From a virus (taxonomy: Duplodnaviria; Heunggongvirae; Uroviricota; Caudoviricetes): 43,551 nucleotides of DNA. Below, piece after piece: positions 2,547 to 43,551 of the stretch. The notes under the pieces are model-generated. The model searched no databases. It worked only from the letters and a program-made list of their open reading frames with translations, and was not told where the DNA came from. Numbering within the stretch: the first letter of the stretch is position 1; each line of letters opens with the position of its first letter. A program made the translations under genes and the position numbers. The stretch lies in IMG/VR virus record IMGVR_UViG_2718217869_000004. One strand, given 5' to 3'.

Positions 2547-2735
2547 TTAGCTTACGGTTGACCCCACTGCGAAAAGCGCAGATTTTTATCAATGGACGTA
2601 CATAGGGTAGATAAGGCACAATACTGCTTCAATGTCGTCTGATGGTATTGTAATACTAATTACATCAGATGATTTAACTAGATTAGTTCTTTATAGAAAT
2701 CATTCTTGAATATTAATTGGCTGACTGAGGTTTTT

Positions 2736-3521
2736 ATGGATGAAAAATACAGAAGATTTGTTGATGAGGTTGACTTTTCAAGACAATTATTAGGCATAGG
2801 GCTCACTTCCCTAAGGAAAGCAAATTTTGCAAGTAGAGGATTGTATTTTCAAGCATTATCCGGCATCAGTTTAGGATTAGAAAGGCTTATGAAACTTTGC
2901 CTTATGCTTGATGATTATAATAAAAATGGAAAATATACATCACGCAAAAAATTAAGAGATTACGGTCATAACTTAAGCAAGTTATTCAACCTAGTCATTG
3001 AGAGAGTTGATTCTCCCTCTGGCTTAAATGAAATTCACTACAGAGTGATGGAGTTGTTAACTAATTTTGCAAATTCATCAAGATATAGTAATATTGATTT
3101 CATTACTAATGACAACGACAATGATCCCATGAAGCAATGGTATAATGAAATCGATAAGAGCATTTACGATGAAATATTAACAAAAAGACAAAAAAATATA
3201 ATTGATAAAAAATGCGAGCAATACCGAAGCTATGGTGAAACACTGCCATGCTATGTGCTTGGATATTATGATGAAGACAGAAACCATATAAACTCTGCAG
3301 GGGATTTAAATTATTTACTTAAAAGAAGTGAAATGCTTGCTGGTTATCGCACTTTATTAGTTATTCATATCATAGAATGCATCTATAACATATTAGACTC
3401 AATGACAGTTCAAGCAAAAGATAATCACTTCCACCATCTTGAATTAGGTCGTTTTTTTGCAACCATCATTTATGGCTCTGATAGAGACAAAATCAATAGA
3501 AAAAATTTTATCCGTATGTGA
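2736..3521 (+). CDS. Hypothetical protein (about 261 aa), AT-rich, unrecognised family; candidate accessory/defence gene
   Basis: Long ORF with GAGG RBS 6 nt upstream of ATG at 2736; sits exactly between the two tRNA-fragment direct repeats. Confidence 0.7.
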   Translation: MDEKYRRFVDEVDFSRQLLGIGLTSLRKANFASRGLYFQALSGISLGLERLMKLCLMLDDYNKNGKYTSRKKLRDYGHNLSKLFNLVIERVDSPSGLNEIHYRVMELLTNFANSSRYSNIDFITNDNDNDPMKQWYNEIDKSIYDEILTKRQKNIIDKKCEQYRSYGETLPCYVLGYYDEDRNHINSAGDLNYLLKRSEMLAGYRTLLVIHIIECIYNILDSMTVQAKDNHFHHLELGRFFATIIYGSDRDKINRKNFIRM

Positions 3522-3599: not shown

Positions 3600-3716
3600 A
3601 TGGGGTGTCGGGGGGCGGAGGTTCAAATCCTCTCGTGCCGACCAAAAATCCTCGAAGAACCAGCCTGTTACGGCTGGTTTTTTTGCCTGTTTTCTGAACG
3701 GGGAAGCAATGGGGAA
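3600..3716 (+). repeat. Direct repeat copy 2: tRNA-Pro-like 3' fragment plus terminator hairpin
   Basis: atggggtgtcggggggcggaggttcaaatcctctcgtgccgacca...ccagcctgttacggctggttttttt; differs from copy 1 by a few indels/substitutions. Confidence 0.75.
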
Positions 3717-4111
3717 TTACAGGGGAAAAACCCCGTCAAATGTTGCCCCCGTATCGCTAGCACACAATGATTAAGTATCTTTTTCACTTTCGGAATTCAT
3801 CAATTCACAAAACCATCATTCCGATTTACCTTACATGCTCCTTTTAAATCTTTAACGGTGTGCACCACTTTTTCTAACTGCCCTATACTTTCAGTCTGAC
3901 ATACGGCTGGAGGTTTCTATGTGTGGACGCTTTTCACAGTCAATGACCCGTGAAGATTATCTTGCCCTTCTCGCTGATGAATCAGAACGCGATATTCCAT
4001 ACGATCCAGAACCCATCGGAAGATTCAACGTAGCGCCAGGAACAAAAGTTCTGCTTCTGAGCGAACGTGATGAGCAGTTGCATCTTGATCCAGTTATCTG
4101 GGGATACGCCC

Positions 4112-5450
4112 CATAAGCGCTAACTTAAGGGTTGTGGTATTACGCCTGATATGATTTAACGTGCCGATGAATTACTCTCACGATAACTGGTCAGCAATTC
4201 TGGCCCATATTGGTAAGCCCGAAGAACTGGATACTTCGGCACGTAATGCCGGGGCTCTAACCCGCCGCCGCGAAATTCGTGATGCTGCAACTCTGCTACG
4301 TCTGGGGCTGGCTTACGGCCCCGGGGGGATGTCATTACGTGAAGTCACTGCATGGGCTCAGCTCCATGACGTTGCAACATTATCTGACGTGGCTCTCCTG
4401 AAGCGGCTGCGGAATGCCGCCGACTGGTTTGGCATACTTGCCGCACAAACACTTGCTGTACGCGCCGCAGTTACGGGTTGTACAAGCGGAAAGAGATTGC
4501 GTCTTGTCGATGGAACAGCAATCAGTGCGCCCGGGGGCGGCAGCGCTGAATGGCGACTACATATGGGATATGATCCTCATACCTGTCAGTTCACTGATTT
4601 TGAGCTAACCGACAGCAGAGACGCTGAACGGCTGGACCGATTTGCGCAAACGGCAGACGAGATACGCATTGCTGACCGGGGATTCGGTTCGCGTCCCGAA
4701 TGTATCCGCTCACTTGCTTTTGGAGAAGCTGATTATATCGTCCGGGTTCACTGGCGAGGATTGCGCTGGTTAACTGCAGAAGGAATGCGCTTTGACATGA
4801 TGGGTTTTCTGCGCGGGCTGGATTGCGGTAAGAACGGTGAAACCACTGTAATGATAGGCAATTCAGGTAATAAAAAAGCCGGAGCTCCCTTTCCGGCACG
4901 TCTCATTGCCGTATCACTTCCTCCCGAAAAAGCATTAATCAGTAAAACCCGACTGCTCAGCGAGAATCGTCGAAAAGGACGAGTAGTTCAGGCGGAAACG
5001 CTGGAAGCAGCGGGCCATGTGCTATTGCTAACATCATTACCGGAAGATGAATATTCAGCAGAGCAAGTGGCTGATTGTTACCGTCTGCGATGGCAAATTG
5101 AACTGGCTTTTAAGCGGCTCAAAAGTTTGCTGCACCTGGATGCTTTGCGTGCAAAGGAACCTGAACTCGCGAAAGCGTGGATATTTGCTAATCTACTCGC
5201 CGCATTTTTAATTGACGACATAATCCAGCCATCGCTGGATTTCCCCCCCAGAAGTGCCGGATCCGAAAAGAAGAACTAACTCGTTGTGGAGAATAACAAA
5301 AATGGTCATCTGGAGCTTACAGGTGGCCATTCGTGGGACAGTATCCCTGACAGCCTACAAAACGCAATTGAAGAACGCGAGGCATCGTCTTAACGAGGCA
5401 CCGAGGCGTCGCATTCTTCAGATGGTTCAACCCTTAAGTTAGCGCTTATG
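4112..5450 (+). mobile_element. IS186 (IS4 family), 1339 bp, with 23-bp terminal inverted repeats and 10-bp target duplication
   Basis: Ends CATAAGCGCTAACTTAAGGGTTG ... CAACCCTTAAGTTAGCGCTTATG; flanking direct repeat GGATACGCCC at 4102-4111 and 5451-5460. Confidence 0.9.
4167..5279 (+). CDS. IS186 transposase (370 aa)
   Basis: Translation MNYSHDNWSAILAHIGKPEELDTSARNAGAL... matches the IS186 transposase; lies between the IRs. Confidence 0.9.
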   Translation: MNYSHDNWSAILAHIGKPEELDTSARNAGALTRRREIRDAATLLRLGLAYGPGGMSLREVTAWAQLHDVATLSDVALLKRLRNAADWFGILAAQTLAVRAAVTGCTSGKRLRLVDGTAISAPGGGSAEWRLHMGYDPHTCQFTDFELTDSRDAERLDRFAQTADEIRIADRGFGSRPECIRSLAFGEADYIVRVHWRGLRWLTAEGMRFDMMGFLRGLDCGKNGETTVMIGNSGNKKAGAPFPARLIAVSLPPEKALISKTRLLSENRRKGRVVQAETLEAAGHVLLLTSLPEDEYSAEQVADCYRLRWQIELAFKRLKSLLHLDALRAKEPELAKAWIFANLLAAFLIDDIIQPSLDFPPRSAGSEKKN

Positions 5451-5936
5451 GGATACGCCCCCGGTTGGTGGGATAAACCGCCGCTCATTAATGCACGGTC
5501 TGAAACTGCTGCCACCAGCAGAATGTTTAAACCACTCTGGCAGCATGGCCGCGCAATTTGCTTTGCTGATGGATGGTATGAGTGGAAAAAGGAAGGCGAC
5601 CAAAAACAACCCTACTTTATTCACCGGGCAGACGGTCAGCCGATTTTTATGGCGGCGATCGGCAGCACACCATTCGAACGTGGAGATGAAGCAGAAGGTT
5701 TCCTGATAGTTACAGCTGCAGCTGACAAAGGACTGGTTGATATTCACGACAGACGACCACTGGTACTGCTACCGGAAGCCGCGCGTGAATGGATGAGGCA
5801 GGATGTTGGAGGGAAAGAAGCAGCGGAAATTGCAGCCGACGGTGTTGTACCGGCTGATAAATTTATATGGCACGCCGTAACGCGTGCCGTCGGGAATGTG
5901 AAAAATCAGGGCGCCGAACTAATAACGCCAATATGA

Positions 5937-6358
<422 letters not shown>

Positions 6359-6360
6359 GG

Positions 6361-6603
6361 CTAAAGTCCTCCGTTTGGATTGAACAGCTGAAAGGTTCGG
6401 TTCTCGCCTTCCTGCGTTGATACATCGCGGAATGTTGTCACATAACATTCTATCCAATCGTTGGCCTGCTTCATCGTCCAGTGCCAGTTAACCTTACCCA
6501 GTTCCTGGACAAACCGCTGTGTGGTGACAGTCTTCCGGCCATTCGGTTCTCGCTGTATCGAAGCATGCCAGGCTATTTCAATATCGCTACGTTGTGGCAT
6601 CAT
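6361..6603 (-). CDS. Hypothetical small protein (about 80 aa) immediately upstream of and translationally coupled to the UmuD-like gene; possibly ImpC-like
   Basis: ORF MMPQRSDIEIAWHASIQREPNGRK...; its stop is 2 nt from the UmuD-like ATG; LexA box 40 bp upstream; start codon choice uncertain. Confidence 0.5.
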   Translation of the reverse strand: MMPQRSDIEIAWHASIQREPNGRKTVTTQRFVQELGKVNWHWTMKQANDWIECYVTTFRDVSTQEGENRTFQLFNPNGGL

Positions 6604-6642
6604 TAACCCCTTCTTGAACACTGGATAAAAAAACAGCATAAG

Positions 6643-6662
6643 CACTGTGTATCCATCCAGTA
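6643..6662. promoter_or_regulatory. LexA (SOS) box between divergent dinI-like and small-ORF/umuD-like units
   Basis: cACTGTgtatccatcCAGTa fits CTG-N10-CAG consensus TACTGT(AT)4ACAGTA; 16 bp upstream of the dinI-like start. Confidence 0.65.
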
Positions 6663-6677
6663 AAGAGGCAATAAGCA

Positions 6678-6920
6678 ATGTTCGTGGAACTCGTTTATGA
6701 CAAAAGGAATTTTGATGGCCTGCCCGGTGCAAAAGATATCATTCTGGGCGAATTGACTAAGAGGGTTCACCGGGTCTTCCCTGATGCTGATGTCCGGGTA
6801 AAACCGATGATGACACTGCCGGCGATCAACACTGACGCCAGCAAGCATGAGAAGGAACAGATAAGCCGTACTGTTCAGGAAATGTTTGAAAAGGCTGATA
6901 TGTGGCTGGTTTCAGATTAA
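6678..6920 (+). CDS. dinI: DinI family protein (DNA damage-inducible protein I homologue, 80 aa)
   Basis: Size and C-terminal ...QISRTVQEMFEKADMWLVSD resemble DinI (...QRISEILQETWESADDWFVSE); AGAGG RBS; LexA box upstream. Confidence 0.8.
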   Translation: MFVELVYDKRNFDGLPGAKDIILGELTKRVHRVFPDADVRVKPMMTLPAINTDASKHEKEQISRTVQEMFEKADMWLVSD

Positions 6921-41363: not shown

Positions 41364-42471
41364 AAATAATGTTTCAGTACCTAACTTGTATCCGCTTTAT
41401 AGCAGAAAAGTAAATAAAGTCTATTGGCGATATAAGCATCCAGTGACCGGGAAATTTCATTCGTTGGGCACAAATGAAGCTGAAGCTATTGCTATTGCCA
41501 CTGAAGCTAACACTCGTCTGGCTGAGCAAAGAACCCGGCAGGTTCTAGCTATCAGTGATAGGATCGCAACCAGCAAAGGAAAAACTATAACAACATCATC
41601 ATGGTTAGAGCGTTACCAAGCTATTCAGGATGACAGGCTGAAAAGTGGTGATATAAAGCTCAACACCTATAAACAGAAAGCCAAACCAGTATCCTTGCTC
41701 AGGGAACGAGCAGGAATGAAGTTAATTTCATCCGTTGATGTAAGGGATATCGCACAATTGCTTGACGAGTATATCACTGCCGGGCAACCGAGGATGGCGC
41801 AAGTAGTCCGCTCCGTTCTAATTGATGTATTCAAGGAGGCACAACACTATGGGGAGGTCCCTCCTGGCTATAATCCAGCATTAGCGACCAAACAGCCCAG
41901 AAGAAAAATTACCCGACAACGGTTAAGTCTTGAAGAATGGCAAAAAATCTTTGATATCGCAGATGCCAGTCATCGTTATATGGGGAATGCCATGCTGTTA
42001 GCACTGGTTACCGGTCAGAGGTTAGGTGATATCTCGCGTATGAAATTTAGCGATATTTGGGATGATCATCTTCACGTCATCCAGGAAAAAACCGGGAGCA
42101 AAATCGCCATCCCGCTTTCCCTGCGCCTCAATGCAATTAACTGGAGTTTACGCGATGTAGTAGCCCGCTGCCGTGACTATGCAGTCAGCCCATACCTTGT
42201 ACATTTTTTTCGTACGACTTCACAGGCTGAACGTGGCGCGCAGGTTAAAGCCAATACATTGACGATGAATTTCACTAAAGCGAGGGATTTGGCGGGAATT
42301 GATTGGGGGGATGGAACTCCTGCAACATTCCATGAACAACGGTCTTTATCTGAACGTCTATACAAAGAACAGGGGTTAGACACACAAAAGTTGCTGGGAC
42401 ATAAATCACCTAACCAAACAGCTCGATACCATGATGATCGTGGGAAAGATTGGGTTAAAGTAGCCCTCTGA
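41344..42471 (+). CDS. int: Tyrosine integrase (lambda Int family, e14 IntE-like)
   Basis: 375 aa, MAARPRKNNVSVPNLYPLYSRKVNKVYWRYKHP...; C-terminal catalytic region ...HEQRSLSERLY...LGHKSPNQTARYHDD. Confidence 0.9.
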   Translation: MAARPRKNNVSVPNLYPLYSRKVNKVYWRYKHPVTGKFHSLGTNEAEAIAIATEANTRLAEQRTRQVLAISDRIATSKGKTITTSSWLERYQAIQDDRLKSGDIKLNTYKQKAKPVSLLRERAGMKLISSVDVRDIAQLLDEYITAGQPRMAQVVRSVLIDVFKEAQHYGEVPPGYNPALATKQPRRKITRQRLSLEEWQKIFDIADASHRYMGNAMLLALVTGQRLGDISRMKFSDIWDDHLHVIQEKTGSKIAIPLSLRLNAINWSLRDVVARCRDYAVSPYLVHFFRTTSQAERGAQVKANTLTMNFTKARDLAGIDWGDGTPATFHEQRSLSERLYKEQGLDTQKLLGHKSPNQTARYHDDRGKDWVKVAL

Positions 42472-42504
42472 CAAATGAAGGCTACTAGATAGCAGAAGAC
42501 ACAT

Positions 42505-43551
42505 TTAGCGTACCGCTGGTTCTGCTTGAGCTGGCGGATCATTAGGTATGATCAAATTAAACTGACCACGAGCAACATGTCCGTTTTCGGTCACTTCTAA
42601 ATAGCTAATTCTTACTACCTCACCAGTCACAATAGCGGAGGCAAGCGCCTGTAACTCAACCGGGCGAGCAATATCCTCAGCTACTTTTATAGTAAAACTC
42701 TCTCCATTACTGACCCGGATCACACTTAAGTTTAACTCAGAGCTTGATATTCCGGATCGAGAGAGCCCCTTAATATAAAAGTTATCAAAGCGTTCTGTTC
42801 TTTCTCTGTCAACACTTTGCCTGTTTCGATAATCCTGAAGGGCTGCACCATCATATTGTTGATTTCCGATCTTTACGGACTCAGCATCTGACGCGACCGA
42901 TTTAAGCAAAGAGGACTTTCCATCTTCACCATGTGCTTCAATTTCGCGGCTAAGACTAGTTTCTCCCCTACGTTTGACCTCTCTCCCCAACTCAAATGAG
43001 CGTGTCATACCATCTACTACCGTTTGAGTCGTCTGAGTTTGAGCATTTAAGTCTGCGGCATGATCTTGGCTATTTGTGTACAAATAATAGCAACCACCTA
43101 CCGTCAAAGCGGTAATCAGTGCTAGCAAAATTGTCATTTTCTGAACGCCAGTCATACCTTCAAACGCTCCCGTGAGGAATGCAAGAAACTGATTAATGGT
43201 ACCTGACCAGTCAGTCTCTGAATCAGTAGAACCTTCCTTTATTTTAAATATAACATCCAAAGACTGTTTATCTTCATTAGTCAGCCTTTGTAAATTTGAG
43301 GTGCCATACTTCGCCAATGCATAAGCACGTTGAAATGACTCATGCATACTCGCCAAGCCATACACCATAGAGCTAGTCAGTGAAGAATGAAATTTTTCAC
43401 CTTTTACATTGATATGAAGATTCGGCCACCCTTGAAAATCTATATCTGCAGGTATATCAGCACCGGGATGTTCGGTTTCCTTTTGTAGAAAATCATCCAC
43501 AACGTTCCAAAATGTTTCTGCATTCTCAATAACAATTGCTGCATCAGTCAT
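42505..43551 (-). CDS. Hypothetical membrane-anchored protein (at least 348 aa; N-terminus at window edge, may be truncated); AT-rich cargo next to int
   Basis: Single central hydrophobic helix MTILLALITALTVGGCYYLY between two soluble domains; convergent with int. Confidence 0.7.
   Translation of the reverse strand: MTDAAIVIENAETFWNVVDDFLQKETEHPGADIPADIDFQGWPNLHINVKGEKFHSSLTSSMVYGLASMHESFQRAYALAKYGTSNLQRLTNEDKQSLDVIFKIKEGSTDSETDWSGTINQFLAFLTGAFEGMTGVQKMTILLALITALTVGGCYYLYTNSQDHAADLNAQTQTTQTVVDGMTRSFELGREVKRRGETSLSREIEAHGEDGKSSLLKSVASDAESVKIGNQQYDGAALQDYRNRQSVDRERTERFDNFYIKGLSRSGISSSELNLSVIRVSNGESFTIKVAEDIARPVELQALASAIVTGEVVRISYLEVTENGHVARGQFNLIIPNDPPAQAEPAVR

Follow-up and report, generated by a model that had tools for sequence, protein, structure and literature searches.

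IS186 insertion at a consensus target in a yedK-like SRAP gene of an e14-like Escherichia coli prophage

The SRAP protein YedK of Escherichia coli (PDB 2ICU, 6NUA, and 6KBS) is the bacterial homologue of human HMCES, and proteins of this kind crosslink abasic sites in single-stranded DNA through Cys2, acting with Glu105 and His160, in the form of a covalent thiazolidine. Insertion sequences of the IS4 family, IS186 among them, transpose by the DDE, cut-and-paste route. The K-12 copy IS186A has perfect 23-bp inverted repeats and a 10-bp duplication in a GC-rich GGGG(N6/N7)CCCC target, and 5'-GGGG(N6/N7)CCCC is given as the preferred IS186 target in PMC6925257, citing Chong 1985, SaiSree 2001, and Lee 2016. 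A known case is the lon promoter, where, according to literature cited in PMC6925257 and PMC3045373, IS186 is found in independent lineages repeatedly at one base. Phage P1, with its HumD/UmuD' system and DinI, an SOS cargo carried by temperate phages, is the closest described counterpart of the genes considered alongside. Here we describe a copy with the same sequence as IS186A whose target, unlike that at lon, lies within coding sequence, in a prophage-borne SRAP gene next to a HumD-family gene and a dinI-like gene.

The window (the whole 43,551-nt stretch of DNA that was analysed) is the reverse complement of sequence from E. coli Ecol_545 (NZ_CP018976.1), isolated from a human in Viet Nam. 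It carries a full-length e14-like prophage at icd, with the SRAP region at the att-proximal cargo end (Table 1). From left to right, an icd' fragment is followed by an HNH endonuclease gene, an unknown gene, the SRAP gene with IS186, the HumD-like gene (minus strand), the dinI-like gene (plus strand), the pin invertase gene (minus strand), invertible tail-fibre genes, and baseplate genes, beyond which lie head, lysis, regulatory, and integrase genes.

Table 1. Positions of features at the interrupted SRAP locus, numbered from the first base of the window.
Feature	Position	Strand	Remarks
tRNA-Pro 3' fragment	3600-3644	+	45 nt; start of SRAP cargo module
SRAP gene, 5' part	3919-4111	+	codons 1-64 and first base of codon 65
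Target-site duplication, left copy	4102-4111		GGATACGCCC; by script
IS186 (IS186/IS421, IS4 family)	4112-5450	+	inverted repeats 4112-4134 and 5428-5450
insL transposase gene	4167-5279	+	370 aa, intact; translation identical to K-12 InsL1
Target-site duplication, right copy	5451-5460		GGATACGCCC; by script
SRAP gene, 3' part	5461-5936	+	through stop codon
HumD-family (UmuD'-like, S24) gene	5937-6358	-	convergent with SRAP gene, abuts its stop codon
(CAGC)11 tetranucleotide repeat	6250-6293	-	on coding strand; TRF 11.0 copies, 100% match
Two LexA-box-like CTG-N10-CAG sites	6621-6636, 6645-6660 (CTGTGTATCCATCCAG)	+	candidates from pattern search; just upstream of dinI-like gene
dinI-like gene	6678-6920	+	80 aa, intact; same strand as SRAP gene

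The element at 4112-5450 is IS186. It is identical to K-12 IS186A at 1339/1339 bp, the two having the same length between inverted repeats, and a script matched its terminal repeats, which start CATAAGCGCTAACTTAAGGGTTG, at 23/23 positions. The InsL ORF matches Pfam DDE_Tnp_1 and NCBIfam transpos_IS4_1 (IS4 family), both above cut-offs; PGAP assigns the transposase to WP_001300563.1 under the name 'IS4-like element IS421 family', and the annotation of the identical K-12 protein is IS186/IS421 family. Judged by its intact ends and intact transposase gene, the copy is probably active. Three IS186 copies are present in the Ecol_545 chromosome and are possible donors.

Both flanks of the element carry a perfect 10-bp duplication; because G4101 is the same base as the final position of the IS, G5450, the sequence can equally well be read as a 1338-bp IS with an 11-bp duplication. 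The restored target, GGGGATACGCCCC (CT-GGGG-ATACGC-CCCC-GG), fits GGGG(N6/N7)CCCC. There is no second match to this consensus elsewhere in the 43.5-kb window, for which shuffles predict 0.87, so IS186 took the only consensus site that the prophage offered. The edges of the duplication fall two bases inside the ends of the G4...C4 motif (GG-GGATACGCCC-CC), a geometry in common with K-12 IS186A (GG-GGATCACTCC-CC) and with a site in ETT2 (GG-GGATTCTCCC-CC). In the SRAP gene the motif encodes the conserved W-G-Y-A-P-G-W (WGYAPGW) of SRAP proteins. The K-12 yedK version of the site, GGGGATATGCTCCC, specifies the same residues as TGG GGA TAT GCT CCC GGA and is without the consensus because synonymous codons (GCT CCC vs. 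GCC CCC in the prophage) leave three C's.

The ETT2 matches were considered as ancient SRAP remnants, 30 nt of SRAP flank plus the IS end being matched at 93.7% identity in many genomes. This was rejected: they belong to a separate locus, within the type III secretion region ETT2, with a target, CTGGGGATTCTCCCCC, that is only similar to the SRAP target. The ETT2 consensus site (4022-4041 in locus L004; about 2520-2540 in locus L091) is occupied by IS186 in many E. coli genomes, in either orientation depending on the genome, and the right-hand neighbouring gene is unlike in the two loci, making an IS-mediated deletion possible.

When IS186 and one duplicate are removed, the two parts of the SRAP gene join in frame, as confirmed by script, to give 669 nt encoding 222 aa and a stop, with the protein reading MCGRF...WGYAPGWWDKPP...ELITPI. 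The restored protein matches Pfam SRAP (PF02586; 173.3 bits, cut-off 27.1), the NCBIfam YedK subfamily PRK09951 (463.9 bits, cut-off 349), and the PDB YedK structure sequences (E about 1e-137). It has the same 222-aa length as E. coli YedK and is identical to it at 194/222 residues (87%), with Cys2, Asn75, Glu105, and His160 all conserved. K-12 yedK, however, is chromosomal and only 77% identical in DNA, whereas the Ecol_545 gene is a disrupted, prophage-borne paralogue. SRAP homologues also occur in temperate phages, including Escherichia phage PHB10 (86%) and Gifsy-2 (86% over a partial match). Our literature search returned no relevant report linking IS186 with yedK.

As it stands, the 5' ORF (3919-4116) encodes 65 aa, its TAA stop lying a few bases into the IS, and PGAP labels this part 'SOS response-associated peptidase family protein, incomplete'; the RefSeq annotation has two SRAP pseudogene fragments around the IS421/IS186 transposase gene. 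Cys2 is in the N-terminal fragment, from which Asn75, Glu105, and His160 are absent. Because the insertion parts Cys2 from the other catalytic residues, the gene should be null, and from what is known of YedK and HMCES the cell would lose an abasic-site-crosslinking protein. On the other side, an ATG at 5448, contributed by the IS end (...CTTATG), is in frame and opens a 162-aa ORF without Cys2. A scan for sigma-70-like promoters and a pattern search for an exact LexA box found neither upstream of the SRAP gene. Since the SRAP gene is monocistronic and converges with its neighbour, its disruption should have no polar effect.

The same module with an uninterrupted SRAP gene was found in six genomes (AH01, fEC.1, CDF6, GF8, GF75, and GF161) at 98.5-99% identity. 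AH01, the one of the six that was aligned across the insertion point, shows 0 differences from Ecol_545 over 600 nt (300 nt to either side), and its 669-nt SRAP gene differs at a single position (99.9% identical). Of 5426 complete E. coli genomes, 22 carry this type of allele; the site is empty in 20/22 and the SRAP-IS186 junction is present in 2/22, namely Ecol_545 and LP50-1. The insertion in the present prophage is found in 1/5426. A synthetic reversed-junction query detected no genome with IS186 in the opposite orientation at the SRAP site. The empty site is present in 45 viral and 31 metagenome contigs; the exact junction was found in none of the metagenome and viral contigs, a result of little weight as short-read assemblies break at IS copies.

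The insertion is not a chance artefact, since the element is identical to K-12 IS186A and the empty-site allele exists in other genomes. The almost unchanged empty site, the flawless duplication, and an IS that does not differ from the reference copy support a recent, lineage-specific event. The initial annotation had described a recent insertion of IS186, with a clean 10-bp target duplication, into an otherwise intact yedK-like SRAP gene in the cargo region of a prophage, and had called for comparison with relatives lacking the element; the empty-site alleles, the identity of the element, and the in-frame join bear this description out, and all its coordinates hold by sequence reading and script.

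In LP50-1, IS186 occupies the same base and points the same way, and neither the duplication nor the IS sequence differs (this copy is likewise identical to IS186A), but the prophage is one at tRNA-Pro. The restored SRAP genes of LP50-1 and Ecol_545 are 92.4% identical, and their flanks differ at 32/600 positions (12/300 left, 20/300 right), the first differences lying 26 nt left and 32 nt right of the IS. The closest empty-site relative of the LP50-1 allele, in AR_0128, matches it at 99.4% and is likewise located at tRNA-Pro. We infer two separate transpositions because both disrupted alleles are much nearer to an empty-site allele than to each other; by these comparisons shared ancestry is unlikely. 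Two hits at one base are explicable because IS186 target specificity is sharp, and two events in one orientation are too small a sample to call this site hotter than other consensus sites.

We hold with high confidence that a resident IS186 transposed recently into the sole consensus site of the prophage and inactivated its SRAP gene, LP50-1 having been hit independently. According to this reading, an IS186 resident in the Ecol_545 genome would have moved into the only consensus target of the prophage, GGGG-ATACGC-CCCC. Cuts staggered by 10 bp, each placed two bases in from an end of the G4...C4 motif, would have generated the duplication, and splitting of the SRAP gene at codon 65 would have abolished the crosslinking protein. 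Most simply, the event would be a neutral step in the decay of prophage cargo, although sequence alone cannot tell neutral decay from selected loss.

The HumD-like gene beyond the SRAP gene is marked 'frameshifted' by PGAP, and is out of frame in Ecol_545 because of its (CAGC)11 repeat. The in-frame 9-unit allele of fEC.1 matches the NCBIfam HumD equivalog with 207 bits (cut-off 120) over profile positions 1-129. The ORF starts MGFPSPA at the position of the UmuD' N-terminus and is without the cleavable N-terminal arm, as in a pre-truncated UmuD'. The dinI-like gene, which is divergent from the HumD-like gene, matches Pfam DinI with 73.6 bits (cut-off 24.2) and is a 'DinI family protein' according to PGAP. 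In GE3 a fuller module is present, in which the SRAP gene is followed by umuC and umuD on the opposite strand and then dinI. A short dinI-like fragment between the HumD-like and intact dinI-like genes (6481-6582, +), of a type annotated in SC476 as an incomplete DinI family protein, is left over from an earlier rearrangement of the module.

The HumD-family gene adjoining the SRAP gene, the intact dinI-like gene, and the two candidate CTG-N10-CAG sites ahead of the dinI-like gene agree with the SOS-themed cluster of the initial annotation. Its claim that the SRAP gene converges on UmuD-like and dinI-like genes is right for the S24 gene on the minus strand and wrong for the dinI-like gene, which is co-oriented with SRAP on the plus strand; the 'UmuD-like' gene is UmuD'-related, but belongs properly to the HumD family and is already frameshifted. 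The locus resembles the P1 HumD/UmuD' system with DinI in its match to the same HumD model, the adjoining dinI-like gene, and the LexA-box-like sites, and differs from such systems in having no adjoining Y-family polymerase gene and in the frame-breaking (CAGC)n of its HumD-like gene.

The number of repeat units varies among near-identical loci (at least 98.5% identity for complete genomes; loci L002, L012, L013, L014, L043, L061, and L078). Nine units, in fEC.1 and L078, leave an intact 137-aa ORF in frame, whereas the alleles with 8 units (L061), 11 units (Ecol_545 and AH01), 13 units (CDF6 and L043), and 14 units (GF8, GF75, and GF161) are out of frame; the SC476 homologue has no repeat and an intact ORF. 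(CAGC)n thus looks like a contingency-type repeat, which is to our knowledge unusual for E. coli, and this variable tetranucleotide repeat is a more unusual feature of the locus than the IS186 insertion. Of the three SOS cargo genes, Ecol_545 has lost two, by different hypermutable routes.

It is conceivable, though we consider it unlikely, that the SOS module of these e14/SfV-like prophages is built to switch, with (CAGC)n, as a true contingency repeat, toggling HumD and the IS186 consensus acting as a second, recurrent off-switch for SRAP. Nine units may then be the on state of a translesion-synthesis cofactor, and 8, 11, 13, and 14 units the off states. If so, lineages would differ heritably in abasic-site handling and mutagenesis.

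Less probable still is that the insertion was selected, either because SRAP loss is advantageous, for example through less interference with translesion synthesis or prophage induction, or because the IS gives outward transcription or an ATG, yielding a truncated SRAP protein or transcripts antisense to humD. The independent occupation of 2/22 carriers would accord with selection, but target specificity by itself explains the recurrence. Similarly, the in-frame ATG at 5448 has no Shine-Dalgarno-like sequence before it when the sequence is read by eye, and its truncated ORF is without the catalytic Cys2. As for outward transcription toward the UmuD-like gene, nothing promoter-like turned up in a simple consensus scan at the right end of the IS, and the HumD-like gene is already frameshifted in Ecol_545 as well as in AH01 with its empty site, so any read-out from the IS would be antisense to a dead gene.

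Alternatively, the sharing of position, orientation, duplication, and IS sequence between the two genomes could derive from a single ancestral insertion, the disrupted allele having been moved by recombination between prophages at icd (Ecol_545) and at tRNA-Pro (LP50-1). This alternative is very improbable and already close to refuted: the flanks are about 5% divergent from 26 nt left and 32 nt right of the IS outward, the empty-site sisters are closer (99.9% for AH01, 99.4% for AR_0128) than the occupied alleles are to each other (92.4%), and the shared IS sequence says nothing either way, as K-12 IS186A has it too. Mis-assembly is the least credible explanation, since, for all that repeats such as the three chromosomal IS186 copies can be mis-joined, a consensus target with a perfect 10-bp duplication is what true transposition leaves behind, each junction is unique sequence, and the independent LP50-1 assembly has the same structure.

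Recent transposition of IS186 into the SRAP gene, as preferred here, is a real and correctly read event, but an ordinary one that was already known in so far as it is visible in the RefSeq annotation, and, being a textbook case of IS186 entering its consensus target, it matters little in itself. It does provide a clean natural example of IS186 specificity sharp enough for the same base to be hit twice, in independent prophage lineages, and of synonymous codon choice deciding whether the conserved WGYAPGW motif is an IS target. Neat as they are, the recurrence in LP50-1 and the codon dependence of the target were to be expected. The locus also illustrates how prophage SOS cargo (SRAP, HumD) decays piecemeal.

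Regarding the origin of the cargo, the tRNA-Pro fragment at the start of the SRAP module differs by a single mismatch from the 3' end of the real tRNA-Pro ahead of this module in LP50-1, and in LP50-1, AR_0128, and GE3 the same module comes directly after a genuine tRNA-Pro. This placement next to a real tRNA-Pro elsewhere suggests that the SRAP module, and the cargo led by tRNA-Pro fragments, was acquired from relatives integrating at tRNA-Pro. ARAGORN found no complete tRNA in the window. A second tRNA-Pro 3' fragment (about 2429-2474) lies in tandem with the first, each preceding one cargo gene, and the 271-aa ORF between them (2706-3521, +) has no Pfam, NCBIfam, or PADLOC match. The HNH endonuclease (1264-2232, +; 322 aa), which presumably occupies the mcrA position of e14, has its best matches to PtuB-type HNH effectors of Septu/retron defence (PADLOC E = 1e-23) and matches a type IV restriction model less strongly.

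At about 41639-43551 (record 5007367-5009279), the integrase end of the prophage is followed in Ecol_545 by ypjA-side genes and not by icd, whereas icd' at the other end is followed by iraM and bluR, which suggests an inversion or a recombination between two prophages. The only Rfam match in the window is the IS200-associated STnc490 (469-592, -; 146 bits), a 5'-UTR RNA of an IS200C (1-592) that lies just outside the prophage end, and another IS200C is located about 1.5 kb further out in the chromosome (locus L001).
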